This document shows, in pieces, positions 2,751-59,182 of a stretch of 64,000 nucleotides of DNA; position 1 is the stretch's first letter; every line of letters begins with the position of its first letter. A program made the position numbers and the translations under genes. The stretch spans positions 53,637-117,636 of the forward strand of contig JAWCKR010000001.1 of NCBI GenBank assembly GCA_038851755.1, written 5' to 3'. The notes below the pieces were generated by a model, which worked only from the letters and a program-made list of their open reading frames with translations, ran no database searches and was not told the origin of the DNA. This stretch comes from Candidatus Hadarchaeales archaeon. GTDB taxonomy: Archaea; Hadarchaeota; Hadarchaeia; Hadarchaeales; WYZ-LMO6.

Positions 2751-6834
<4,084 letters not shown>

Positions 6835-10423: not shown

Positions 10424-10424
10424 A

Positions 10425-10499
10425 CGGGCCTGGTGGGATTCGAACCCACGACTCCCGGCTTAAAAGGCCGGTGCGCTAGCCAGACTGCGCTACAGGCCC
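10425..10499 (-). tRNA. tRNA-Lys (anticodon UUU)
   Basis: Reverse strand GGGCCTGTAGCGCAGTCTGGCTAGCGCACCGGCCTTTTAAGCCGGGAGTCGTGGGTTCGAATCCCACCAGGCCCG. 7-bp acceptor stem, D-arm GCGC/GCGC, anticodon stem CCGGC/GCCGG with loop CTTTTAA, T-arm GTGGG-TTCGAAT-CCCAC, discriminator G, no encoded CCA; 75 nt. Confidence 0.9.
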
Positions 10500-10524
10500 A
10501 ACTAACGGAGGGGTCGAAACTACT

Positions 10525-13463: not shown

Positions 13464-13859
13464 CTACCGCCCTCGTCCAGCTTTCGACTCCCGGCGGCCC
13501 ATCGCTTCTTCCACGGCCTTCTTGATCATCCTCTTGGGTGGATAGGGGTAGTGCCTCCCCCCGTAGAAGTAAACCCTGCACCCGAGCTTGCACTCCCTTC
13601 GAACGAAATGACCAGCGCTCTCGGCAAGCTCCTCGCAAGAAGGGCACCTCCCCTTCGTGACCTCCTCTTGAACATCCCTACCATCCACCAGCACGGTGGG
13701 CGAACCCAAAAACCCGTGCTCCTTGGCCTTTTCCTCCGTGTCTATCAGTATTTCTTCCACCTCCGCTTTTACCCCCAGTTCTCTCAGGACCTCTCTGACC
13801 ACCTCCTTGGTCTTCAGGCACCATGGGCAGTCCAATATGTACAGAATCTGAATCTTCAC
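13464..13859 (-). CDS. Thioredoxin/glutaredoxin-fold protein (CPWC active site) with a C-terminal Cys-rich (CPSC...C..C) extension, embedded in the pur operon
   Basis: KVKIQILYILDCPWCLKTKEVVREVL...GSPTVLVDG is a Trx fold; tail ...GRCPSCEELAESAGHFVRRECKLGC. The track ORF begins at GTG 13928 inside purQ with no RBS. GTG at 13859 follows the purQ stop, preceded by GAGGGAAAGAAG; preferred start. Confidence 0.6.
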   Translation of the reverse strand: MKIQILYILDCPWCLKTKEVVREVLRELGVKAEVEEILIDTEEKAKEHGFLGSPTVLVDGRDVQEEVTKGRCPSCEELAESAGHFVRRECKLGCRVYFYGGRHYPYPPKRMIKKAVEEAMGRRESKAGRGR

Positions 13860-13873
13860 CTTCTTTCCCTCGA

Positions 13874-14665
13874 TTATCTCCTTAAATTCTCCACTATGGA
13901 AGAGAAGATCTTTCTCCCGTCGCCCCACTCGGGAGGAGAATCACCCCCCGTCCAGTCGGGAAGCTGCCAGCCGAAGACCGCCCTCTCCGGATGGGGCATC
14001 AGGCCCATGATCCTGCCCGTGGAGTCGCATATGCCTGCAATATCGAAGAAGGACCCGTTGGGGTTCACCGGGTACCTCCCGCCCGCTGGCCTCCCCCTCC
14101 GGTCGCAGTACCTGAAGACCAGCTGATCCTTCTCACGGAGCTTCCTCAGGTACTCCTTCTCCCTGCCCGCCGGGAAAAGGAACTTCCCCTCCGCATGCGC
14201 CACGGGCATCCTCACCACCTCCCCCTTCCTCATCCCCCTCGTGAAGAGGCACTTCCCGCCGTTCTCCACCCTCAGATATGTCCACCTGCACTCGAACTTC
14301 GCCGAGTTGTTGAGGGCAAGGGCCGCCTGCACCTCCCCCCACTTGAAGCCTGGCAGGAGACCCGCCTCCACCAGCACCTGAAAGCCGTTGCAGATCCCCA
14401 GGATGGCCCCTCCTCCCTCCACGAACTCCCTAAGGACGGGGAGCATCCTCCCGGCAAGCTCCTTGCCCATGATCGCACCTGCCCTCACCCTGTCCCCGAA
14501 GGAGAAGCCACCGGGAATCACCAGCACGTCGTATCCCCTCAGTCCCTCCTCCAGCATCCTCCTGAAGTGGACCAGCTCCACCTCCGCACCAGCCTCCTCC
14601 AGAGCAACCTTCGTCTCGCCGTCGCAGTTGGTCCCGCCCGCCCTCACGACACAGGCCCTCACCAC
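13874..14665 (-). CDS. purQ: Phosphoribosylformylglycinamidine synthase subunit PurQ (glutaminase)
   Basis: VVRACVVRAGGTNCDGE...ILGICNGFQVLVEAGLLPG...MPHPER is a class-I glutamine amidotransferase triad. GTG start overlaps the purL stop (gcGTGGTGAgg). The track ORF (to 14986) is a Gly-rich over-extension running into purL. Confidence 0.9.
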   Translation of the reverse strand: MVRACVVRAGGTNCDGETKVALEEAGAEVELVHFRRMLEEGLRGYDVLVIPGGFSFGDRVRAGAIMGKELAGRMLPVLREFVEGGGAILGICNGFQVLVEAGLLPGFKWGEVQAALALNNSAKFECRWTYLRVENGGKCLFTRGMRKGEVVRMPVAHAEGKFLFPAGREKEYLRKLREKDQLVFRYCDRRGRPAGGRYPVNPNGSFFDIAGICDSTGRIMGLMPHPERAVFGWQLPDWTGGDSPPEWGDGRKIFSSIVENLRR

Positions 14666-46643: not shown

Positions 46644-47639
46644 GTGGGAAGGAGAGCACACAGGCCCAGGCGCGGATCCCTTGCCTACTCACCCAGGGTG
46701 AGGGCACCCTCCCCGGTACCGCATATCAGGGCCTGGCCCGAAGTCAAGGAAACGCGCCTGCTGGGCTTCGCGGGCTACAAGGCGGGGATGACCCATGTCT
46801 TCTACGTGGACGACAGGAAGAGCAGCCCCACCTCGGGGAAGGAAATCCTCTCTCCCGCCACCGTCATCGAGGCTCCACCCCTGAGGGTCTGCGGGATAAG
46901 ATTGCTGGGCAAAACCGACCACGGGCTCAGGACGCTCACCGAGGTCTGGGCCGGTGACCTCCCCAAGGAGCTGGGCAGGAAACTGAACCTTCCCAAGGCT
47001 TCCCCGGAGGAGGGAAGGAAGAAGGCGGAGGAACTCGTGAGGGAGGGGAAGGTGGAGGAGGTCAGGGCCCTCGTGTGCACCCAGCCCTGGCTCTGCTCGG
47101 GACCCAAGAAAAAACCGGACGTCTTCGAGGTAGGGGTAGGAGGACCCGACGTGGCCTCAAGGTGGGAGTACTGCAAGAACCTGCTGGGCAAGGAGGTGAA
47201 GGCCTCGGAGGTGTTCAAGCCAGGGGAGTACGTGGACGCCACCGCCATCACGAAGGGCAAGGGGTTCGAGGGACCCGTGAAGAGGTGGGGTGTGAAGATC
47301 CTGCCCAGGAAGACGGACGAGGGAAGGAGGCAGGTGGGTACCCTGGGACCCTGGACCCCCGCCAGGATCATGTGGAGTGTCCCCGCCGCCGGGCAGATGG
47401 GCTATCACCAGAGAACGGAGCTGAACAAGCGCATCCTGAAGATAGGGAAGGGGGAGGAGGTGACTCCTCCGGGAGGGTTCAGGAGGTGGGGACCCGTGAA
47501 GAGCGAGTACCTGCTGGTGGCCGGATCCCTCCCAGGTCCCACCAAGAGACTGGTCCAGCTGAGACCGGCGAGGAGGGCTGAGGGAACCGGGGGCGTCCCC
47601 GTGCTGACCTACATGGCGGGTACGGGTGTGGAGAGATGA
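46644..47639 (+). CDS. rpl3: 50S ribosomal protein L3 (uL3)
   Basis: MGRRAHRPRRGSLAYSPRVRA... typical archaeal uL3 N-terminus. GTG start directly after the upstream TGA, with GGAGGTGGAG upstream. Confidence 0.95.
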   Translation: MGRRAHRPRRGSLAYSPRVRAPSPVPHIRAWPEVKETRLLGFAGYKAGMTHVFYVDDRKSSPTSGKEILSPATVIEAPPLRVCGIRLLGKTDHGLRTLTEVWAGDLPKELGRKLNLPKASPEEGRKKAEELVREGKVEEVRALVCTQPWLCSGPKKKPDVFEVGVGGPDVASRWEYCKNLLGKEVKASEVFKPGEYVDATAITKGKGFEGPVKRWGVKILPRKTDEGRRQVGTLGPWTPARIMWSVPAAGQMGYHQRTELNKRILKIGKGEEVTPPGGFRRWGPVKSEYLLVAGSLPGPTKRLVQLRPARRAEGTGGVPVLTYMAGTGVER

Positions 47640-48412
47640 AAGCTCCCGTTTTCTCCCTCGAGGGAGCGAAGGTGGAAGAGGTGGAGCTCCCCGAGGTCTT
47701 CCAGGAAGAGTACAGGCCCGACCTCATCAGGAGGGCCGTCCTCTCCTCCCAGACCGCCCGCTTGCAACCCAAGGGAGTGGACCCCATGGCCGGAAAGCGC
47801 ACCTCGGCCGAGACCTGGGGGAAGGGATACGGGGTGGCCAGGGTGCGGAGGGTGAAGGGAAGGGGGTCTCCCGCCTCCGGCAGCGGGGCCTTCGCTCCTC
47901 ACACGGTGGGCGGCAGGAGGGCCCATCCACCCCTCCCCCAGAAGGTCCTCCGGGAGAGGATAAACCGGAAGGAAAAGAAGCTGGCCTTCCGCTCCGCGGT
48001 GGCCGCCACGGCCAGGAAGGAACTGGTGAGCTCCCGAGGCCACCTGACGGAGAAGGTCCCCTCCCTTCCCCTGGTGGTGGAGGACGGGCTGGAGGAACTC
48101 TCCGAGACCAAGAGGGTGAAGGAGGTCTTCCAGAAACTGGGGCTCTGGGAGGAGGTGGAGAGGGTCTACCAGCGTGTGAAGATCAGGGCGGGGAGGGGAA
48201 AGATGAGGGGCAGGAGGTACAGGAGCCCCGTGGGGCCCCTGGTGGTGGTCTCCGGGGACAGGGGTATAAAGAAGGGGGCGGGGAACCTTCCTGGGGTGAA
48301 GGTGGTGGAGGTTAGGAACCTGGGGGTGGAGGACCTCGCTCCGGGGGGGATGCCCGCCAGGCTCACCCTCTGGACCCGCTCCGCCCTGCGGCAGCTGGAG
48401 GGCAGGATATGA
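47636..48412 (+). CDS. rpl4: 50S ribosomal protein L4 (uL4)
   Basis: 258 aa; ...GKGYGVARVRRVKGRGSPASGSGAFAPHTVGGRRAHPP... typical uL4. ATGA overlap with rpl3. Confidence 0.95.
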   Translation: MKAPVFSLEGAKVEEVELPEVFQEEYRPDLIRRAVLSSQTARLQPKGVDPMAGKRTSAETWGKGYGVARVRRVKGRGSPASGSGAFAPHTVGGRRAHPPLPQKVLRERINRKEKKLAFRSAVAATARKELVSSRGHLTEKVPSLPLVVEDGLEELSETKRVKEVFQKLGLWEEVERVYQRVKIRAGRGKMRGRRYRSPVGPLVVVSGDRGIKKGAGNLPGVKVVEVRNLGVEDLAPGGMPARLTLWTRSALRQLEGRI

Positions 48413-48672
48413 AGGATCCCCACAAGGTAATCCTGTACCCGCTCGCCACCGAGAAGGCCGTGAGGCTGATAGAGGCGGAGAACAAGCTGACCTTCGTGGT
48501 CTCCCCCGATGCCAACAAGACGGATGTGAAAAGGGCGGTGGAGCTCCTGTACGGGGTGGAGGTGGAAAGCGTGAACGTGGAGCGGGACCGGGAGGGGAAG
48601 AAGCGGGCCTACGTGAAGCTCACCCCAAGATTTATTGCGGATGAAGTGGCATCCAAGCTGGGGGTGATCTGA
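48409..48672 (+). CDS. rpl23: 50S ribosomal protein L23 (uL23)
   Basis: MKDPHKVILYPLATEKAVRLIEAENKLTFVVSPDANKTDVKRAVE... typical uL23. Confidence 0.93.
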   Translation: MKDPHKVILYPLATEKAVRLIEAENKLTFVVSPDANKTDVKRAVELLYGVEVESVNVERDREGKKRAYVKLTPRFIADEVASKLGVI

Positions 48673-49376
48673 TGGGAAAGATCATAAGGGCGCAGAGGAT
48701 CGGGAAGGGCTCCCCCACCTACAGGGCGAAGAGCTGGAGGAGGGTGGGGGAGGTGAGGCTTCCCCCTCCCAAGGCGAGCAGGGGGGTGGTGGTGGACCTC
48801 GTGCACGAGCCCGGCAGGGGATACCCGCTCATGCTGGTGAAGTTCGAGGAGGGCTTCAGGGTGGTGCTGCCCGCCCCTGAGGGCATAAAGGTGGGGGAGG
48901 AAGTGGAGTGCGGCCCCGGGGCCAGCGACAGGCCCGGGAACATCAAGCCCCTGGCGGAGATACCTGAGGGCACCAGGATCTTCAACATCGAGTCCCTGCC
49001 GGGGGACGGGGGAAAGTTCGTCAGGACCTCAGGATCCCACGGTATCCTGGTCGCCAAGGAGGCGGGGAGGGCGATGGTGCAGCTGCCCTCCGGGGAGATA
49101 AAGACCCTGGACCTCAGGTGCAGGGCCGTCATAGGAACGGTCTCCGGAGGGGGGAGGATCGAAAAACCCTTCCTCAAGGCGGGGAAGAGGTATCACGCCA
49201 TGCTGGCCAGGGGGAAACCCTACCCGCGTGTGAAGGGTGTGGCCATGAACGTGGTGGACCATCCCTTCGGAGGGGGGAGGGGAAGGCACGCGGGAAGGCC
49301 CAAGATAGTGTCGAGGAGGGCGCCCCCGGGACAGAAGGTGGGCCTCATCGCCGCCAGAAGGGTGGGCAAGAGGTAG
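48672..49376 (+). CDS. rpl2: 50S ribosomal protein L2 (uL2)
   Basis: ...[13 protein letters not shown]...[19 protein letters not shown]... is the uL2 signature. Confidence 0.95.
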
Positions 49377-49380
49377 GCGA

Positions 49381-49788
49381 ATGCCCAAGAAGTTCACTTA
49401 CCGCGGGTACACCCTGGAGGAGCTGAAGAAGCTCCCTCTCGAGGACTTCGCCAAGCTCCTTCCCTCCCGCCAGCGCAGGGCCATCCTCAGGCTCGTGCGC
49501 GGGCTCCGCCCGGAGGAGAAGAAGCTCCTCTCGAAGGTGAGGGAAATCTCCAAGAAGGGCGATGGGGAGACCATCATACGCACCCACCTGAGGGAGATGG
49601 TCATCCTCCCCGAGATGGTGGGGTTGAAGTTCGGGGTGCACAATGGAAAGGAGTTCGTGGTGGTGGAGATAAAGCCGGAGATGATCGGGCACCGGCTGGG
49701 GGAGTTCAGCCAGACCAGGAAGAAGGTGACGCACGGGGCCCCGGGCATAGGGGCCACCCGCAGCTCCATGTTCGTGCCCCTGAAGTGA
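49381..49788 (+). CDS. rps19: 30S ribosomal protein S19 (uS19)
   Basis: [18 protein letters not shown]...[30 protein letters not shown]... typical uS19. Confidence 0.95.
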
Positions 49789-49792
49789 TGAG

Positions 49793-50248
49793 ATGCCCAA
49801 GTTCGGTTACTCCTGCAAGGTGGAAGAACCCTGCGCCAAGGCCATGGGCAGGGAGCTCAGGATCTCCCCCAAGGACGCGGTGGAGATCTGCAGGGAGATA
49901 AAGGGCATGAAGCTCCGCGAGGCCCAGTCCTACCTGGAGGAAGTGGTCAAGGGGGAGAGGGCCGTGCCCTTCAGGAGGCACGCCAAGAAGGTGGCCCACC
50001 ACAAGGGCACGAAGGGGGCAGGGGCCTTCCCCGCCAAGGCCGCGAAGGCCATCCTGGAGGTGCTGAAAAACGCGGAAGCCAACGCCGCCTACAAGGGACT
50101 GGACGCCGAAAAGCTGAAGGTGGTGCACGCCAGCGCCAGCAGGGGCATCATCCTGCCTGGCATCCTGCCCAGGGCCTTCGGAAGGGCCACCCCCTACAAC
50201 AGGCCCCTCACCAACGTGCAGATCGTGCTGAAGGAGGCCCAGGCTTGA
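49793..50248 (+). CDS. rpl22: 50S ribosomal protein L22 (uL22)
   Basis: 151 aa; ...AKAMGRELRISPKDAVEICREIKGMKLREAQSYLE... typical uL22. Confidence 0.93.
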   Translation: MPKFGYSCKVEEPCAKAMGRELRISPKDAVEICREIKGMKLREAQSYLEEVVKGERAVPFRRHAKKVAHHKGTKGAGAFPAKAAKAILEVLKNAEANAAYKGLDAEKLKVVHASASRGIILPGILPRAFGRATPYNRPLTNVQIVLKEAQA

Positions 50249-50904
50249 GGGTGGACAAGCTCTTCGTGAAGAGGGCCATAGATTTCGCGGAGCTGAACGA
50301 GTACCTGGAGAAGGAACTTGAGCATGCGGGCTATGCGGGAGTGAGCATGAGCAGGGTGCCCACGGGCACCAGGATCACCCTCTACGTGGAGCGTCCGGGG
50401 GCCGTCATAGGGAAGAAGGGGAAGAGCGTGCAGGAGCTGACGGACGAGCTGACCAAGAGGTTCAAGGTGGAGAACCCGCAGGTGGAGGTGGTGGGAATAG
50501 AGAAGCCCGAGCTGAGCGCACCCATCATGGCGAAGAGGATAGCCTTCGCCCTGGAGAGGGGGGCCCACTTCAGGTCACTGGGATACACCTTCATGAACAG
50601 GATCATGGAGGCCGGGGCCAGGGGGGTGGAGATCGTGATCTCGGGGAAGCTGGGTGGGGAGAGGGCCAAGCGGATGAGGTTCTATCAGGGATACCTGAGC
50701 AAAGCCGGGGACCCCGCCCACAGGCTGGTGAGCTACGGCTACGCCTACGCCAAGCTGAAGCCCGGGGTGGTGGGGGTGAAGGTCAGGATCATGCCTCCCG
50801 TGCCCACGCCGGACGAGATAAAGATGAGGACCGAAACCCAGAAAACCGAGGAACCACCAACGGAAAAGGCTGCGGAGGGAGAGAGTGGCGGTGCTGAGGG
50901 CTGA
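50245..50904 (+). CDS. rps3: 30S ribosomal protein S3 (uS3)
   Basis: KH domain (...VIGKKGKSVQELTDEL...) plus uS3 C-domain. TTG start overlapping the rpl22 stop (TTGA); GTG at 50251 is an alternative. Confidence 0.92.
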   Translation: MRVDKLFVKRAIDFAELNEYLEKELEHAGYAGVSMSRVPTGTRITLYVERPGAVIGKKGKSVQELTDELTKRFKVENPQVEVVGIEKPELSAPIMAKRIAFALERGAHFRSLGYTFMNRIMEAGARGVEIVISGKLGGERAKRMRFYQGYLSKAGDPAHRLVSYGYAYAKLKPGVVGVKVRIMPPVPTPDEIKMRTETQKTEEPPTEKAAEGESGGAEG

Positions 50905-51097
50905 TGAGATAAGGGGAATGAGCCTGGAGGAGATGAAGGCCAAGCTCAGGGAGCTCCGCGCTGAGCTGGCCAGGGAGAGGGCGGTGAGGAGGGGGGGAGT
51001 CCCCTCCGACAACCCCATGAGGGCCAGGGAGCTCAAGCGCGCCATAGCAAGGATTTTAACGGTGGTGCGAGAAAAGGAAAGGGTGAAAGTTCCATAA
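50885..51097 (+). CDS. rpl29: 50S ribosomal protein L29 (uL29)
   Basis: MAVLRADEIRGMSLEEMKAKLRELRAELARERA... is the uL29 coiled-coil. GTG start. Confidence 0.85.
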   Translation: MAVLRADEIRGMSLEEMKAKLRELRAELARERAVRRGGVPSDNPMRARELKRAIARILTVVREKERVKVP

Positions 51098-51408
51098 TGC
51101 AGGGAATCTGTCCACGCTGCGGCCTTCCCACCGAACTCTGCGTCTGCGGTGAAATCTCCCGGGAACAGCAGAAGATCACCGTCTACTCGGAGAGCCGCAG
51201 GTTCGGGAAGGTGGTGACGGTGATAGAGGGGCTGGACGAGAAGAAGAGCGACCTGAAGGAGCTGCTGAAGAAGCTGAAGAGCAAAATGGCCTGCGGGGGG
51301 ACGATGAGGGAGAGGAGCATCGAACTCCAGGGGGACCACAAGGACAGGATAAAGGAAGTGCTGGTGGAGCTCGGGTTTTTACCCGAGTCCATAGACGTTA
51401 TCGAGTGA
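51097..51408 (+). CDS. Translation initiation factor SUI1 (aIF1/eIF1 homologue) with N-terminal Zn ribbon
   Basis: MQGICPRCGLPTELCVCGE...KITVYSESRRFGKVVTVIEGL...KELLKKLKSKMACGGT... is the SUI1 fold. TAATG overlap with rpl29. Confidence 0.88.
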   Translation: MQGICPRCGLPTELCVCGEISREQQKITVYSESRRFGKVVTVIEGLDEKKSDLKELLKKLKSKMACGGTMRERSIELQGDHKDRIKEVLVELGFLPESIDVIE

Positions 51409-51409
51409 G

Positions 51410-51679
51410 ATGCCCCTGCGGCCCGCCAACCTGCCCAGGCACGAGCTGATAGGACTGGAGGTGGAGGTGCTGGAGAGCAGGGACCCTGGGCTGAAGGGCC
51501 TGCGTGGCAGGGTGGTGGACGAGACGAAGAACATGCTTAAAATACGGGTGGGGGGAAAGGTAAAAAGCGTGCCGAAGTCCATAGTCTACCTGAGGTTCGT
51601 CCTGCCGGAGGGAGAAGAAGTGAGGGTGGAAGGAAAGAGGCTGGTGGCGAGGCCCGAGGAGAGGGTGAGGAAGGTATGA
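51410..51679 (+). CDS. rnp1: Ribonuclease P protein component 1 (Rpp29/Pop4)
   Basis: 89 aa; ...[35 protein letters not shown]... is the Rpp29 Sm-like fold. Conserved position between SUI1 and rps17. Confidence 0.8.
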
Positions 51680-51996
51680 AGAGCGTGCTGGGAATGAGGG
51701 CCCCAGAGACCCCTTGCTCCGATCCGCGCTGTCCCTTCCACGGGAGCCTCTCCGTGAGGGGGAGGGTGCTGGAGGGGACGGTGGTGAGCGACAAGAGGGC
51801 GAAGACCGTGACGGTGGAGATCCCCCGCGTCCACAGGGTGGAGAAGTACGAGAGGTTCGAGAAGAGAACCTCCAGGATCCACGCCCACAACCCCCCCTGC
51901 ATCAACGCCAGGGTGGGGGAGAGGGTGAAGATAGCGGAGTGCCGGAGGCTGAGCAAGACGAAGGCCTTCGTGGTGATAGGGAAGGAGGGGGGCTGA
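51676..51996 (+). CDS. rps17: 30S ribosomal protein S17 (uS17)
   Basis: ...[45 protein letters not shown]... typical uS17 OB fold. Confidence 0.92.
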
Positions 51997-52419
51997 ATGG
52001 GGAAGAGGGCAGGAGGCATCATGGCCACGGGCATGGCCGCCCCCGTCCGCGCGCTGCCCATAGGCGCCAGGCTGAGCTGCGCCGACAACACGGGGGCCAA
52101 GGAGATTCAGATCATCTCGGTGGTGGGGTTGAAGGGGAAGAGGAGGAGGCTGCTCTCGGCGGGGGTGGGTGACCAGGTCGTGGCCTCCGTGAAGAAGGGG
52201 ACCCCCGAGCTCAGGAAGCAGATCGTGCGCGCCGTGGTGGTCAGGCAGAGGAAGCCTTACCTCAGGAGCGACGGGATCAGGATCAAGTTCGAGGACAACG
52301 CCGCCGCCATCATCACCCCGGACGGCTCCCCCAAGGGCTCGGAGATCAGGGGGCCCATAGCCAAGGAGGCGGCCGAGCGCTGGCCCAAGCTGGCGGGAAT
52401 AGCCACGATGGTGGTGTGA
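51997..52419 (+). CDS. rpl14: 50S ribosomal protein L14 (uL14)
   Basis: ...[24 protein letters not shown]...[13 protein letters not shown]... typical uL14. Confidence 0.95.
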
Positions 52420-52800
52420 GTGAAGAGCAAAAAGCCTGGAAGGCAGAGGCTCAGGCTCCACACCATGCCCCTCCACAGAAGGCACAAACTGCTCTCCGCC
52501 ACCCTCAGTCCGGAACTGAGGGAGAAGTACGGCAGGAGGTCCCTCCCCGTGAGGAAGGGGGACAAGGTGAGGATCCTCAGGGGGGACTTCAGGAAGCTGG
52601 AGGGGGAGGTGCTGGGGGTGGACCTGAAGAGGGTGGCGGTGACGGTGGGAGGAGCCAGCACCAGGAAGGCGGACGGGACAGAGGTCCCGAGGAAGATCCA
52701 CCCCTCCAACCTCATGATCCTGAAGCTGGCCCAGGACAAGGAGAGGGAGAAGGCCCTCGCCAGGTCAAAACAGCAAAAAATTCCTACAAAATCTCTTTAA
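52420..52800 (+). CDS. rpl24: 50S ribosomal protein L24 (uL24), KOW domain, with A-rich low-complexity 3' tail
   Basis: ...VRKGDKVRILRGDFRKLEGEVLGVDLKRVAVTV... (KOW). GTG start after the rpl14 TGA. Last ~12 codons (SKQQKIPTKSL) are encoded by an A-rich stretch. Confidence 0.88.
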   Translation: MKSKKPGRQRLRLHTMPLHRRHKLLSATLSPELREKYGRRSLPVRKGDKVRILRGDFRKLEGEVLGVDLKRVAVTVGGASTRKADGTEVPRKIHPSNLMILKLAQDKEREKALARSKQQKIPTKSL

Positions 52801-52831
52801 ATCTCATTTCAAAAGAAAAAAAACGAAGAAC

Positions 52832-53962
52832 ATGGACCGGAGAGGGATTGCGCCCATCTTGCTGGTGGCAGTAATAGCAGTGGTAGCGGTGGTGGCTGGC
52901 GCTGCAGTGGTGGTGATGAGGGGAGGCGCGAAGTCAGGGACTCCTGTGTACGCTGGATCGCAGGAAGCCTCCATGCCCTCGTACCTCGCCGGACAGCTCT
53001 GGTACATGGATGTGGAAGGAATCACCATCCACGCCTACTTCATTCAGGGAAAAACCGCGGGCGAGATCCTGAGCTGGTACAGAGAGGAGATGGCTGACAG
53101 GGGCTATGAGAACTACGCGGAGCTGTTTGCAGCTACCCTTCCCATACCCCCATACGGTACCTTCGAGTGGGGGTGGATAGCGTTCAGGAAAGGGGACCGA
53201 GCTGTGGTGGTGGGTGCCTTCAGCGGGACCACGGAAGGTCAGACGGGATGCTGGTACGCCGTAGCGGAAGGACCGTTGAACAAGCTGATGCCACCCGGAG
53301 CACCGGGAGGAGGTCCGGAGCAGCTCCCTGGCTCCGACCAGGCGAGCGGTGTCGAGCCCATTAGCAGGTACCCAGGATCGATAATGCTATCGCACGAAAC
53401 CTCAGGACCTTGGCCGGACCGGATCTCGATCGGCTATGGAAGCACAGAAAACCGACACCGCGTTATAGGGAGCTGGTTCGAAACCCACCTCACCCAGGCT
53501 GGGTGGAGCGTCATAGAAGAGAGTGAAAGCGAAGAGGAGGTCGTCCTGTGGTTCAGAAAAGGTGAGAACGAGGTGGGCCTGTACGTGTACCCGCCGGAGG
53601 AGCAGAGAGCGTACTCCAGGATAAACGTGGTTTTCGATTGCTGGAGGATCCCCGAAAGGGATCTCAAATCCGGAGAGGAACCTGTCGAGCGGTACCCGGG
53701 AGCGGTGATCATCGAGTATTTGCAAGTCGTCATGCAAGGGGGAAAAACCATCACCATCAACTACGTCAGCAAAGCAGGGGCTGACAACATCTTCAACTGG
53801 TACCTGAACTCCCTGCCCCAACAGGGATGGACCATCATCGCCTATTCCCCGAGCGAGTGGGGCATCTCCGCTACGAAGGGTTACAGCACGCTGACGGTGG
53901 AGGTTTCCCCCAACGAGCGACAGTATGCGGAGATAGACGTAATGTACATGGGACCAGCATAA
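52832..53962 (+). CDS. Hypothetical secreted/membrane-anchored protein with three tandem ~95-aa repeats; atypical codon usage
   Basis: N-terminal hydrophobic anchor IAPILLVAVIAVVAVVAGAAVVV. Repeats aa 46-140, 172-270, 281-376 share EP[IV]xRYPG[SA][IV]...I.I.Y...i.[SN]W[FY]..L..[AQ]GW[ST][IV]I...W...[RK]KG...[LV].V. Codon usage (frequent GAA, AAA, TAC, GGA, GCA) differs from neighbours. Confidence 0.6.
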   Translation: MDRRGIAPILLVAVIAVVAVVAGAAVVVMRGGAKSGTPVYAGSQEASMPSYLAGQLWYMDVEGITIHAYFIQGKTAGEILSWYREEMADRGYENYAELFAATLPIPPYGTFEWGWIAFRKGDRAVVVGAFSGTTEGQTGCWYAVAEGPLNKLMPPGAPGGGPEQLPGSDQASGVEPISRYPGSIMLSHETSGPWPDRISIGYGSTENRHRVIGSWFETHLTQAGWSVIEESESEEEVVLWFRKGENEVGLYVYPPEEQRAYSRINVVFDCWRIPERDLKSGEEPVERYPGAVIIEYLQVVMQGGKTITINYVSKAGADNIFNWYLNSLPQQGWTIIAYSPSEWGISATKGYSTLTVEVSPNERQYAEIDVMYMGPA

Positions 53963-53963
53963 G

Positions 53964-53980
53964 TCTCTTCTCTTTTTTTT
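53964..53980 (+). terminator. Oligo-T tract (archaeal terminator-like) after the repeat-protein gene
   Basis: gtctcttctcTTTTTTTTg immediately 3' of the TAA stop. Confidence 0.4.
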
Positions 53981-54025
53981 GAAACCGGCATAAACAGATA
54001 AGAGGGAGCAGGCCCTAGAGGGAAG

Positions 54026-54685
54026 ATGCGCATAGACCTGCACACCCACTCCCTCCTGAGCGACGGGAAGGTCCTGCCCGTGGAGCTCGCCAGGAGGGCG
54101 GAGGTCATGGGGCACGTGGCCCTGGCCATCACCGACCATGCCGATCCCTCCAACCTCGAGAGGCTCGTGCCCCAGATCCTCAAGGCCTCCGAGGAGGTGA
54201 ACAGGAGCATGAAGATCAGGCTCGTGCCGGGAGTGGAGCTCACCCATCTCCCCCCCTCCAGCATAGGAAAGATGGCGAAGCTGGCGAGAAAGCTGGGGGC
54301 CGCCCTGGTGGTGGTGCACGGGGAGAGTCCCGTGGAGCCCGTCCCCCCGGGAACCAATGAGGCCGCGCTGAACTGCGGGGAGGTTGACCTGCTTGCCCAT
54401 CCAGGTTTCCTCTCCCCACAGCTGGCCGAGAAGGCGGAGAAGGAGGAGGTGTACCTGGAGCTGACCTCCAGGAGGGGACATTCCCTCACCAACGGGTGGA
54501 TAGCCAGGGTAGCGGGGGGGTCCGGATGCAGGCTGCTGGTGAACACCGACGCCCACGACCCGGAAGACCTCCTCACCCAGGAGGAAGCCAGGAAGGTGGC
54601 GCTGGGGGCGGGGTTGGAGAAGAGGGAAGCGGAGAGGGCCGTGAAGGAGAACCCGAGGGCCCTCCTCAAGAGGTTAGGATATTGA
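54026..54685 (+). CDS. PHP-family phosphoesterase, probable histidinol-phosphatase (HisJ/HisK-type)
   Basis: MRIDLHTHSLLSDG... (PHP motif I), ...AITDHAD..., ...HPGF..., ...NTDAHDPE... metal-binding His/Asp. Translationally coupled (TTGA) to hisC and followed by the his operon. Confidence 0.7.
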   Translation: MRIDLHTHSLLSDGKVLPVELARRAEVMGHVALAITDHADPSNLERLVPQILKASEEVNRSMKIRLVPGVELTHLPPSSIGKMAKLARKLGAALVVVHGESPVEPVPPGTNEAALNCGEVDLLAHPGFLSPQLAEKAEKEEVYLELTSRRGHSLTNGWIARVAGGSGCRLLVNTDAHDPEDLLTQEEARKVALGAGLEKREAERAVKENPRALLKRLGY

Positions 54686-55764
54686 GGCTCCTCTCGAGGA
54701 GGGTCAGGGAGTTCCTGAAGGCGGGGAGGGCCTACCCCTACGCCGGAGAGTACGGGAGGAGGAGGGAGGTGGTGAACCTTGCCTCCAACGAGAGCCCCTT
54801 TGGTCCCTCCCCCCTCGTCCTCAGGGCCCTGAGGGAGGCCCTCCCCCAGGTGGGCTACTATCCCGACCCGAAGGCGGAGGGACTGAGGAAGGCCGTGGGA
54901 AGGTACGTAGGACTTGGAGGGGAGGAGGTGCTGCTCGGGAACGGGTCGGATGAGCTCATGGACCTCCTCTGCCGGGCCCTCCTCGATCCGGGGGACCGCG
55001 TCCTCCTCCCCCTCCCCACCTTCAGCTTCTACGAGACCGGGGTGCTGCTGAGCGGCGGAGTGCCGAGGTTCTACAGGGGGAGGGGGGTGGAGTGGGACCC
55101 GGAGGAGCTGGTCTCGGCCTGCAGGGGGGTCAAGCTGGTCTTCCTGGGGCGGCCGAACAACCCCACCGGGAGCTGCCTGGAGGAGGAAGCGGTGGAGGGG
55201 CTGCTGGACACCGGGGCCCTGGTGGTGGCCGACGAGGCCTACGTGGAGTTCTCCTCCAGGGGGTCCCTGGCGCGGTGGGTCAGGAGGAGGGAGAACCTGG
55301 CGGTGCTCAGGACCTTCTCCAAGGCCTTCGGGCTGGCCGGGCTCCGGGTGGGCTACCTGCTCGCCCGACCCGAGCTGGTCTCCGTGCTGGAGAGGCTGCG
55401 CCAGCCCTTCAACGTGAACAGGCTGGCCCAGGTGGCCGCCGAAGCCGCCCTCAGGGACCTGAAGCACATGAAGAGGGTGGTGGGGGAGGTGAGGAGGGAA
55501 AGGGAGCGTTTGAGGCACGAGCTCCTCTCCCTGGGGCTGAAGGTCCTCCCCTCGGAGGCCAACTTCCTGATGGTGGGGACCTCTCCCTGGGGGAAGACGG
55601 CGCCCGAGCTCTGCAGGGAGCTCTACCGCGAAGGGATCCTCATAAGGGACCTCTCCGGCTTCAGGGGGGCGGGAAAGGAGTGGGTGAGGATCACGGTGGG
55701 GAGAAAGGAAGAAAACGAAAGACTCATAGAGGCGCTTGGAAAGGTGAAGGGGGGAAGAAAGTGA
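54682..55764 (+). CDS. hisC: Histidinol-phosphate aminotransferase
   Basis: ...NLASNESPFGP..., ...LGNGSDELMD..., ...FSKAFGLAGLRVGY... (PLP Lys); class-II aminotransferase. TTG start overlapping the upstream stop. The track ORF from 54496 is over-extended. Confidence 0.88.
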   Translation: MRLLSRRVREFLKAGRAYPYAGEYGRRREVVNLASNESPFGPSPLVLRALREALPQVGYYPDPKAEGLRKAVGRYVGLGGEEVLLGNGSDELMDLLCRALLDPGDRVLLPLPTFSFYETGVLLSGGVPRFYRGRGVEWDPEELVSACRGVKLVFLGRPNNPTGSCLEEEAVEGLLDTGALVVADEAYVEFSSRGSLARWVRRRENLAVLRTFSKAFGLAGLRVGYLLARPELVSVLERLRQPFNVNRLAQVAAEAALRDLKHMKRVVGEVRRERERLRHELLSLGLKVLPSEANFLMVGTSPWGKTAPELCRELYREGILIRDLSGFRGAGKEWVRITVGRKEENERLIEALGKVKGGRK

Positions 55765-56627
55765 AGCTGACGATGAGCGTGCCCAAGGGACACCTGGAGG
55801 AGCCCACGGTGAGGCTGCTCCAGAACTCCGGCATAGGGGTGGTGGGGAGGGACGGCAGGCAGCTCTTCTGCCGGACCCACGACCCGGAGCTGGAGCTGGT
55901 GTTCGTGAGAGCGGAGGACATACCCGACTTCGTGGCCGGGGGAGCCACCGAGCTGGGCATCACGGGATACGACCTGGTGTGCGAGAGCGGGAGGGAGAAG
56001 GAGGTGGTGGAGCTGCTGGACCTGGGATACGGCTTCACCAGGATGGTGATAGCCTCCCCCGAGGGGTCCGGGATAGCCTCGCCCTCCGACTACCGCCCGG
56101 GGCTGAGGGTGGCCACGGAGTTCCCCAACCTCACCCGCCAGTACTTCTCGAAAAGGGGGATAGAGGTGGAGGTGGTCAACCTCACCGGGGCCGCCGAGAT
56201 CGCCCCCCTCATAGGGGTGGCCGACCTGATCGTGGACGTGACCAGCACGGGAACCACCCTGCGCACCCACCGCCTGCGGGTGGTGGACACCATCCTGGAG
56301 AGCACCGCCAGGCTGGTGGCCAACAGGAAAAGCATGGGGGAGAAGGGGGAGAAGATCGAGGAGATCAGGACGGCCCTGAGGAGCGCCACGGAGGCCGAGG
56401 GTAAGAAGCTGATCCTCCTCAACCTGCCCGAGAACAGGCTGGAGGAGGTCAAGAAGATACTCCCGGGCATGTCGGGCCCCACCGTCTCCCGGGTGGAGGC
56501 CAAAGAGCCCATGCTGGCCGTTCAGGCGGTGGTGAAGGAGTCGGAGGTGTACAGGGTGGTGAGGGAGCTCAAGAGGGCGGGGGGGAGGGACATCCTGGTG
56601 CTTCCCATCGAGCGCGTCCTCCCCTAG
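55761..56627 (+). CDS. hisG: ATP phosphoribosyltransferase (long form)
   Basis: ...KLTMSVPKGHLEE..., ...DIPDFVAGGATELGITGYDL..., ...DVTSTGTTLR... typical HisG plus C-terminal regulatory domain. GTG (GTGA overlap) at 55761 or ATG at 55773. Confidence 0.9.
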   Translation: MKLTMSVPKGHLEEPTVRLLQNSGIGVVGRDGRQLFCRTHDPELELVFVRAEDIPDFVAGGATELGITGYDLVCESGREKEVVELLDLGYGFTRMVIASPEGSGIASPSDYRPGLRVATEFPNLTRQYFSKRGIEVEVVNLTGAAEIAPLIGVADLIVDVTSTGTTLRTHRLRVVDTILESTARLVANRKSMGEKGEKIEEIRTALRSATEAEGKKLILLNLPENRLEEVKKILPGMSGPTVSRVEAKEPMLAVQAVVKESEVYRVVRELKRAGGRDILVLPIERVLP

Positions 56628-56635
56628 GTGCCAGC

Positions 56636-57343
56636 TTGCTGGTGATTCCCAGCGTGGACATCAGGAGGGGGAGGTGCGTCAGGCTGAGGGAGGGGAGGGT
56701 GGAGGGGGAGAAGGTCTACGGGAATCCCCTGGAGTGGGCGAGGAGGTGGGAAGGAGAGGGGGCCCGCCTCCTGCATGTGGTGGACCTCGACGCCGCCATG
56801 GGCATGGGGAGCAACCTGGGGCTGATCCTGGACCTCCTCAGGGGAAAGAGGTGCAGGATCCAGGTGGGTGGTGGGATAAGGTCCCTGGAGGTGGCGAGGA
56901 GGTACCTCGAAGGGGGGGCTGAGAGAGTGGTGGTGGGCACCTCCGCCGTTAAAAACCCCGGGCTGGTGAAGAGGTTAGTGGAAGCCCTGGGAGGGGAGAG
57001 GGTGGTGGTGGCCCTGGACTCCAGGGGAGGAAAGGTGGTGGTGGAGGGCTGGAGGGAGGAGACGGGAAGGGAAGTGGTGGAGGTGGCCAGGGAAATGGAG
57101 GAGCTGGGGGTAGGGTGCCTCCTCTACACCGACGTGGAGGCCGATGGCACGATGCGGGGGATAGGGGAGAGGGTGGCGGAGATCCTCTCCAGGATAAGGC
57201 TCCCGGTGATCCTCTCGGGGGGGGTTCGCTCCCTGGAGGACGTGAGGAGGGCGAAGGAGGCGGGGGCGGCGGGGCTGATCGTGGGCACGGCCCTCTACGA
57301 GGGAAGGTTCACCCTGGGGGAGGCCATGGAGGTGGCGGAATGA
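56636..57343 (+). CDS. hisA: ProFAR isomerase (1-(5-phosphoribosyl)-5-[(5-phosphoribosylamino)methylideneamino]imidazole-4-carboxamide isomerase)
   Basis: MLVIPSVDIRRGRCVRL... LHVVDLDAA... VGGGIRS... ILSGGVRSLEDV is a TIM-barrel HisA. TTG start. Confidence 0.9.
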   Translation: MLVIPSVDIRRGRCVRLREGRVEGEKVYGNPLEWARRWEGEGARLLHVVDLDAAMGMGSNLGLILDLLRGKRCRIQVGGGIRSLEVARRYLEGGAERVVVGTSAVKNPGLVKRLVEALGGERVVVALDSRGGKVVVEGWREETGREVVEVAREMEELGVGCLLYTDVEADGTMRGIGERVAEILSRIRLPVILSGGVRSLEDVRRAKEAGAAGLIVGTALYEGRFTLGEAMEVAE

Positions 57344-57908
57344 GGAGGTGCAGGCTGGAGAGGAAGACCGGGGAGACGGAGGTGGAGGTCTCCCTCAAGC
57401 TCGACGGTGAGGGCGAGGCCGAGGTGGAGACGGGAATAAGGTTCCTGGACCACCTCCTCTCCCACCTGGCCAAGCACTCGGGCTTTGACCTGCAGGTGAA
57501 GGCGAAGGGTGACATGGAGCACCACGTGGCCGAGGACGTGATGCTCGTGCTGGGACAGTGCCTGGAGAGGGCCCTGGGGGACAAGAAAGGGATAAGGAGG
57601 ATGGGGGACGCGATCGTGCCCATGGACGAGACCCTGGTGATGGTCTCCGTGGACCTGAGCGGGAGGGGCTACTCCTCCCTCGAGCTCAAGCTCAGGGCCA
57701 AGAAGGTGGAGGATCTGGACGCGGACCTGCTCGAGCACCTCCTCCAGACCTTCGCCCAGAACGGAAGGTTCAACCTGCACGTGCAGGTGCTGAGGGGCAG
57801 GAACGACCACCACAAGGCGGAGGCGGTCTTCAAGGCCCTGGGGCTGGCCCTGGGGGAGGCCTGCAGCAGGAGGGGGGGAGGAATCCCCAGCACGAAGGGT
57901 GTGCTCTC

Positions 57909-57912
<4 letters not shown>
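57340..57912 (+). CDS. hisB: Imidazoleglycerol-phosphate dehydratase
   Basis: MRRCRLERKTGETEVEVSLKLDG...FLDHLLSHLAKHSGFDL...GRNDHHKAEAVFKALG typical IGPD. ATGA overlap with hisA. Confidence 0.92.

Positions 57913-59182
<1,270 letters not shown>

Follow-up and report, generated by a model that had tools for sequence, protein, structure and literature searches.

The question raised by this locus is why a single gene of strongly atypical codon usage stands between a ribosomal-protein cluster and a histidine operon in a Hadarchaeales archaeon, and what role its protein would have. The whole stretch of DNA analyzed, hereafter the window, is 64 kb long, and its ORF listing places the gene, here called X, at 52832-53962 (+) with a length of 376 aa. 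The genes 5' of X on the same strand encode L3, L4, L23, L2, S19, L22, S3, L29, SUI1, Rpp29, S17, L14, and L24, the last of which is the final gene of a truncated r-protein cluster (L3...L14-L24). On the 3' side, a gene for a PHP-type phosphatase is followed by hisC, hisG, hisA, hisB, and hisD. X is separated from L24 by 31 nt and from the PHP gene by 63 nt. No copy of S4e, L5, or S8 was found anywhere in the 64-kb window. The initial annotation of this DNA had placed X exactly where the canonical L24-S4e linkage is broken, and this position was confirmed, with the PHP/his genes coming next. The three genes concerned are:

52420 to 52800 (+): gene for L24 (Pfam Ribosomal_L26 PF16906, 8.8e-28; TIGR01080, 3.2e-41).
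52832 to 53962 (+): X, encoding a predicted membrane-anchored protein with three AF_1845 (PF27226) domains (dN/dS 0.20).
54026 to 54685 (+): gene for a PHP-type histidinol-phosphate phosphatase, which opens the his operon (NCBIfam NF004981, 2.2e-89; synteny).

A "hypothetical protein" with 100% identity (P0001) is encoded on a 135-kb contig of a Candidatus Hadarchaeales MAG, and it is shorter than X by the first 11 residues. The N-terminus MDRRGIAP(I/V)LL of X is kept in P0002, an orthologue with 71% identity, and because of this conservation the ATG at 52832 is a better start than that of P0001, which lies 11 codons later.

Flanks in related genomes were checked for an intact L24-S4e junction, as the initial annotation had proposed. 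L24 is followed by S4e in a distant Hadarchaeota contig (L011) and, in the same scan, at about 30 other archaeal loci. The order L24-X-PHP-his occurs in seven contigs of a second species (L001 clade, GC 58%), the flanking proteins of which are 77-93% identical to those of the window, with a DNA identity of about 81%. In a third lineage, L010 (CALJER010000051, GC 66%), the flanking proteins are 87-97% identical to the window, and the DNA identity is about 92% and extends as far as the two junctions. X is absent from it, and the same PHP/his operon begins 70 nt past L24. X is thus present in some close relatives (the L001 clade) and missing in another (L010). X is the sole ORF of the 1.2-kb variable segment.

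Since the L24-his junction exists in L010 without X, the cluster break is independent of X. The simplest history would make this junction a property of the sub-clade rather than a consequence of X, and the earlier view that X interrupts the r-protein cluster had to be given up. Codons of the A-rich L24 tail (about 52765-52797, SKQQKIPTKSL) are common to the window and the L001 clade and are replaced in L010. The 45-nt L010 spacer found in place of X holds no recognizable remnant of it; its identity of about 26% is that of random sequence, at which deletion end-points are not readable.

In the comparison of the window with L001, X has a dS of 0.79, and that of 12 flanking genes ranges from 0.48 to 1.16 with a median of about 0.79. 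The dS of X falls in the middle of the range of its flanks and its dN/dS is 0.20, so X diverged along with the flanks and under purifying selection. Most likely, X was present in the common ancestor of the window, L010, and L001 and was lost in L010. This loss is argued from parsimony and the dS match on the topology ((window, L010), L001), which represents three lineages at one locus. X would so have entered the L24/his junction, or the junction would have formed beside X, in the ancestor of the sub-clade. Beyond this sub-clade, an orthologue-like gene with 41.5% identity (P0015, on a contig of 1.8 kb with a GC of 54%) is not beside L24, and more distant homologues lie in unrelated gene neighborhoods.

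The history proposed in the initial annotation was a different one, namely a horizontally acquired insertion, considered here as a recent island in which X would have come from a foreign donor and split the r-protein cluster. The absence of X from the closest relative, L010, speaks for it, as does a cassette bracketed by A/T-rich flanks and by a 16-nt direct repeat. The repeat lies in the following elements:

52742 to 52757 (+): left copy of the repeat (16 nt, AGAGGGAGAAGGCCCT), located in the coding sequence of L24.
53996 to 54025 (+): conserved his-operon leader, GATAAGAGGGAGCAGGCCCTAGAGGGAAG, with no difference between the window and L001 and 3 substitutions in L010.
54001 to 54016 (+): right copy of the 16-nt direct repeat, in the his leader.

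The 16-nt repeat occurs at these two places and nowhere else in the 64-kb window, where 0.04 matches would be expected, in a test made post hoc. The empty site of L010 has the repeat region in both copies as well, and the repeat is therefore not a target-site duplication. No integrase, transposase, or tRNA was found near X by the tRNA scan and the ORF listing, with the sole tRNA of the window at 10424-10500, and Rfam and tRNA scans around the X locus returned no matches. A scan of metagenomes for the conserved his leader yielded one further contig only, which belongs to the L001 clade and adds no new lineage. The lack of nearby mobile-element genes and of a target-site duplication, a junction that is occupied in L001 at a flanking dS of about 0.8, a dS of X equal to that of its flanks, and a junction that exists in L010 without X make a recent insertion very unlikely. 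Synteny in L001, the empty junction of L010, and the dS comparison largely refute it.

Codon usage is the remaining point in favor of a recent island, as it is strongly atypical in X. Among 50 window genes, X is the most codon-atypical one, with a log-likelihood z of -10.5 under pooled synonymous usage. Its GC3 is 0.70 compared to a window mean of 0.857 (sd 0.05), and the difference in GC-ending codons has a Fisher p of 3e-15. Enriched in X relative to the window are GAA (35% vs 15%), AAA (67% vs 11%), GGA (43% vs 20%), and GCA (21% vs 4%), while AGG (39% vs 74%) and GGG (21% vs 50%) are depleted. The initial annotation had named these codons correctly, but it had also counted TAC among them. 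TAC is the host-preferred Tyr codon and makes up 77% of Tyr codons in X versus 90% in the window; it is frequent in X because the protein is Tyr-rich. As a separate observation, a second gene of the window, encoding a thioredoxin-like DUF2703 protein at 13464-13928 (-), carries the same signature (GC3 0.68, z = -7.3).

The L001 orthologue of X is likewise the most deviant gene of its locus, only mildly so (GC3 0.65 vs about 0.71, z = -4.8), and homologues in four other lineages match their own neighbors in composition. The GC3 of X is nearly constant at 0.70 in the window, 0.65 in L001, and 0.69 in P0015, and the GC3 of the host flanks varies by about 0.15. X has therefore not kept pace with the shift of its host to high GC3, and we infer that its low GC3 is a persisting compositional lag and not a sign of recent transfer. 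Such a lag is compatible both with a partly ameliorated old acquisition of lower GC and with weaker selection for G/C-ending codons.

Two short elements frame the gene:

52796 to 52802 (+): TTTAAAT, a TATA-box-like element that overlaps the L24 stop and lies about 33 nt before the ATG, identified from the sequence.
53973 to 53980 (+): run of eight T (T8), 11 nt past the X stop, a candidate archaeal oligo-T terminator, also identified from the sequence.

In L001, the counterpart of the first element is TTTTAAAA, about 30 nt upstream of its ATG, and T-runs are found at the same place as in the window. No T-run occurs in L010, which is without X; the TATA-like element and the T-run both recur in L001 and are both missing at the empty L010 site. 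The A-rich stretch formed by the L24 tail and spacer (52755-52831) and the oligo-T run, which had been described as bracketing the gene, are both there. TTTAAAT may be the promoter of X itself, from which a leaderless mRNA or one with a very short leader would arise, and X is probably a transcription unit of its own. No significant RNA fold was obtained for the X terminator together with the his leader (z -1.2). A sigma-70 promoter scan was set aside as not applicable to an archaeon.

A functional coupling of X to its neighbors, in which X would be co-transcribed with one of the two operons (r-protein or his) and would take part in their regulation or assembly, would fit the shared strand, the shortness of both spacers, and the synteny kept in two species. 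Against this stand the TATA-like element and oligo-T run of X, a protein that is predicted to be extracytoplasmic, the dispensability of X in L010, and the unrelated contexts of homologues in other archaea. Coupling is accordingly considered extremely unlikely.

The 376-aa product was described in the initial annotation as a protein with an N-terminal membrane anchor and three tandem repeats, and both parts of this description held. Its segments in the window are:

52847 to 52918 (+): N-terminal hydrophobic helix, residues about 6-29, after MDRRG (Kyte-Doolittle maximum 3.19).
52937 to 53281 (+): Domain 1 (D1), residues about 36-150, divergent, with longer strands and an insertion (hhalign; AF2 topology).
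53345 to 53641 (+): Domain 2 (D2), residues about 172-270, beginning with EPISRYPGS (109 bits against the domain profile).
53675 to 53959 (+): Domain 3 (D3), residues about 282-376, beginning with EPVERYPGA.

The hydrophobic segment at residues about 6-29 is the only one in X, and the remainder of the protein is acidic with a pI of 4.6. The AF2 model has a helix at residues 8-29, which could anchor the protein in the membrane or could form the H-domain of a class III signal peptide. The three domains measure about 95-115 aa each and are joined by linkers rich in Pro, Gly, and Ser. Self-alignment recovers the relation of D2 and D3 (BLASTP E = 2e-12, 31% identity, Smith-Waterman z = 16 against shuffles). 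The pairwise signal of D1 is faint, with z = 4.4 against D3 and none against D2. A D1 profile of 11 sequences aligned to a D2/D3 profile with a probability of 96.3% and E = 1.9e-9 in hhalign. The AlphaFold model has a pLDDT of 80 for the whole of X and 95.9 for a single domain. In it, D2 and D3 share the topology beta-beta-alpha-beta-beta-beta-beta, and D1 has beta-alpha-beta-beta-beta-beta, with a helix at 50-59 in place of the first strand of D2/D3. Profile comparison and predicted fold thus show D1 to be related to D2/D3 despite its divergence.

The repeat had been regarded as a family without a name, and this was mistaken. It is already catalogued as Pfam PF27226.1 "AF_1845", which the precomputed annotation of the database assigns to the identical protein P0001 and to all close homologues, among them P0002-P0006, P0015, and P0165, an assignment taken over without re-scoring. 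PF27226 is named after AF_1845 of Archaeoglobus fulgidus and is a Pfam family of unknown function. Scanning X and six family members against Pfam and NCBIfam at E <= 10 produced no informative hit, as the Pfam set used does not contain the PF27226 model. A literature search on "AF_1845" found no papers.

A single-domain profile built from D2 and D3 matched 999 cluster representatives (clusters at 50% identity) from archaea and bacteria, 81 of them with E <= 1e-10. The matches carry 1-7 copies of the domain per protein, and those with a named source are from Candidatus Hadarchaeaceae, Chloroflexota/Anaerolineae, and Desulfobacterales. Few proteins have the three-domain architecture: 16 cluster representatives reach E < 1e-30, and most of these are three-domain proteins of about 330-390 aa. 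Named members of this group belong to Hadarchaeales, Bathyarchaeia, Thermoplasmata, and Methanocaldococcus lauensis, where the protein is listed as "conserved exported protein of unknown function". Many AF_1845 homologues bear lipoboxes or membrane anchors. Partner domains in some of the proteins are FecR with a zinc ribbon, DUF4352, and DUF5667, and one protein has a peptidase M23 match below threshold.

The conserved pattern of the domain consists of EPxxRYPG at its start, W-Y/F in the helix, G-W after the helix, and two Tyr. Invariant positions are E, R-Y-P-G, Y, W, G, and Y, and the P of E-P and the W of G-W are kept in at least 90% of family sequences. Judged by residue type, these conserved positions are structural, with no catalytic-type residues among them. 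X shares the three-domain, membrane-anchored or lipoprotein architecture of other PF27226 members. It differs from them in a D1 that is far more divergent than D2/D3, and the window clade has an RRG + helix N-terminus in place of a lipobox. X is thus an uncharacterized accessory envelope protein from an already catalogued domain family.

The solved structure closest to the AF_1845 domain is that of PA1624 from Pseudomonas aeruginosa (PDB 6td9), on which the domain can be superposed. PA1624 is a protein of unknown function described as distantly Mog1p/PsbP-like (PMC7716261). The matched part is presumably its Mog1p/PsbP-like N-terminal domain. Sequence identity between the two is 14%, and no sequence homology of the X domain to PA1624 was detectable by hhalign (probability 0.1%). 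Neither phmmer with the protein nor hmmsearch with the domain profile found a significant match among PDB sequences. In PA1624, such a domain occurs once, carries insertions, and is accompanied by an OmpA-like domain; the protein is bacterial and periplasmic, whereas X has three tandem domains. Further structure matches of the single-domain model were SciW (10.4), Ms6760 (10.4), and DcrB (9.8), along with START/SRPBCC proteins, BamC, LpqN, Mtc28, and Mog1.

With an antiparallel sheet and a helix packed on one face, the modeled domain corresponds to the Mog1p/PsbP-like, DUF1795 fold. Six AF_1845 family members had no match to Pfam DUF1795 or PsbP at E <= 10, and DUF1795 and Mog1p/PsbP-like proteins are without the EPxxRYPG / W-Y / G-W signature of AF_1845. 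DcrB (6e8a), the SciW/EagT6 chaperones (6xrb), LpqN, and Mtc28 differ in being larger single domains of about 140-180 aa that form no tandem arrays. The SRPBCC / START / Bet v 1 helix-grip proteins have only the sheet and one helix in common with AF_1845, which has neither the closed hydrophobic cavity nor the long C-terminal helix by which the helix-grip fold is defined. The initial annotation had offered PepSY as a possible identity. PepSY and AF_1845 are alike as small extracytoplasmic alpha+beta modules that occur in tandem beside a membrane anchor, but no PepSY (PF03413) match was obtained at E <= 10 and the predicted fold is that of PA1624, DcrB, SciW, and Mog1p/PsbP, which leaves this suggestion without a basis.

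The lack of conserved catalytic-type residues, combined with nearest folds that are those of non-enzymatic envelope or partner-binding proteins, argues for a binding or scaffold role. Extracytoplasmic tethering, tandem arrays, and the anti-sigma-like sensor partners seen in other proteins point to the same non-enzymatic role. From sequence and model, X is most likely an envelope protein that binds a partner or serves as a scaffold and has no enzymatic activity.

A related reading concerns the mode of anchoring only and is compatible with this role in every other respect. It takes the N-terminus of X (MDRR-G/IAPILLV...) as a class III signal peptide cleaved by PibD, by which X would be a type IV pilin-like protein on or in a surface filament or bindosome-like structure, by analogy with the substrate-binding proteins of Sulfolobus. 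Archaeal class III signal peptides have G, A, or S at -1 and a charged residue at -2, directly before the N-terminal hydrophobic domain (PMC4371748). Compared with these criteria by eye, MDRR-G-IAPILLVAVIAVVAVVAGAAVVV has R at -2 and G at -1, and its hydrophobic domain of about 23 residues comes directly at the N-terminal end; the motif is conserved in P0002. However, this loose rule would be satisfied by any anchor of the type "RRG + membrane helix". No Pfam pilin N-terminal model matched at E <= 10, including with the N-terminal 47-48 residues, homologues of other lineages use lipoboxes or plain anchors, and no pilus-assembly genes adjoin X. Processing as a pilin is therefore viewed as rather unlikely.

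Taken over all evidence, the best explanation, to which we give a probability of roughly 60%, is that X is an accessory gene that has long resided in one sub-clade of Hadarchaeales, encoding a non-enzymatic envelope protein and having its own transcription. The protein displays three tandem AF_1845 domains, each a small alpha+beta sandwich, and is predicted to be tethered outside the cytoplasmic membrane by one N-terminal hydrophobic helix. It would most likely work in the cell envelope as a module for binding or scaffolding, with its exposed sheet face turned to a protein, peptide, or lipid partner. X would be transcribed alone, from the TATA-like box at the L24 stop to the oligo-T terminator, with no functional tie to the ribosomal or histidine genes. 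As the comparison of loci shows, the L24-S4e link was broken in the ancestor of the sub-clade and the his operon came to follow L24. X was already at the L24/his junction before the window and L001 split and has stayed under purifying selection since; in L010 it was most likely lost.

A bolder combination, which we hold to be improbable, makes tandem AF_1845 proteins a widespread archaeal and bacterial class of extracytoplasmic receptors or scaffolds, X a PibD-processed pilin-like subunit, and its low GC3 the product of gene-specific codon selection. If this joint reading were true, GC3 would reflect codon choice, for example for slow translation during export, and not foreign origin. In other proteins, AF_1845 modules could serve, for example, as the sensor part of FecR/zinc-ribbon anti-sigma-like proteins.

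X and its flanks have descended together across a dS of about 0.8, and the break in the operon did not depend on X, so its codon atypicality is not proof of recent transfer. The locus thereby has a corrective value, in that strong codon atypicality beside an operon breakpoint need not mean recent horizontal transfer. AF_1845 is a large extracytoplasmic family, and a confident model with structural neighbors such as PA1624 and DcrB provides a starting point for its study. For one uncultured sub-clade of Hadarchaeales, the joining of the first half of the r-protein cluster to the his operon can serve as a synapomorphy.

At 46644-58000 of the window, the ribosomal-protein cluster is represented by its first half (L3 to L24), which is fused to a complete his operon. 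This arrangement also occurs in L010, the closer relative without gene X, and in L001, the second-species contig carrying X at the same junction. The his operon joined to L24 comprises the PHP phosphatase, hisC, G, A, B, D, and I, while the S4e-L5-S8 half of the ribosomal-protein cluster is located elsewhere in this Hadarchaeales sub-clade. In contrast, L24 is still followed by S4e in L011, a distant Hadarchaeota contig. The elements bordering X at this junction are as follows.

52742-52757 and 54001-54016: 16-nt direct repeat AGAGGGAG(A/C)AGGCCCT, flanking the X cassette
53996-54025 (window), 6770-6798 (L001), and 2072-2099 (L010): his operon leader GATAAGAGGGAGCAGGCCCTAGAGGGAAG-ATG

The first copy of the repeat lies inside the L24 coding sequence and the second inside the his leader. 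Only these two matches occurred in 64 kb vs 0.04 expected, in a post hoc test. Degenerate versions of both regions are also present at the L010 site that lacks X, which rules out a target-site duplication as the origin of the repeat. The window and L001 have exactly the same his leader despite a dS of ~0.8 in neighbouring genes. This leader contains overlapping AGGG/CCCT/AGGG palindromes and could be a promoter, a ribosome-binding or a regulatory element.

The A-rich L24 tail is common to the window and L001 (…ARSKQQKIPTKSL*, …SRSGSQKASTKR*), while the tail in L010 (…ARTAPS*, 2020-2041) is shorter and different. This difference indicates that the event removing X in L010 also replaced the last L24 codons.

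The public database entry for the X protein, P0001, is annotated with 365 aa from a start 11 codons downstream, omitting the region 52832-52864 of the window. As the longer N-terminus MDRRGIAPILL is kept in the orthologue P0002, the annotated start is probably too far downstream and the annotated protein too short.

A thioredoxin-like DUF2703 gene at 13464-13928 (-), within a purine-biosynthesis gene cluster, ranked second in codon atypicality among window genes with a GC3 of 0.68 and a z of -7.3, a low-GC3 signature of the same kind as that of gene X.

In another archaeal lineage, a small gene encoding 147-155 aa sits directly upstream of the three-domain gene at the following two loci.

L083, 5514-7146: three-domain gene and small upstream gene
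L007, 7528-9146: three-domain gene and small upstream gene

A gene for a MamF/MmsF-family membrane protein lies just upstream at both loci. The small-gene counterpart in L007 has no Pfam match on record. The small gene in L083 matches AF_1845 weakly, which makes it a possible single-domain paralogue.
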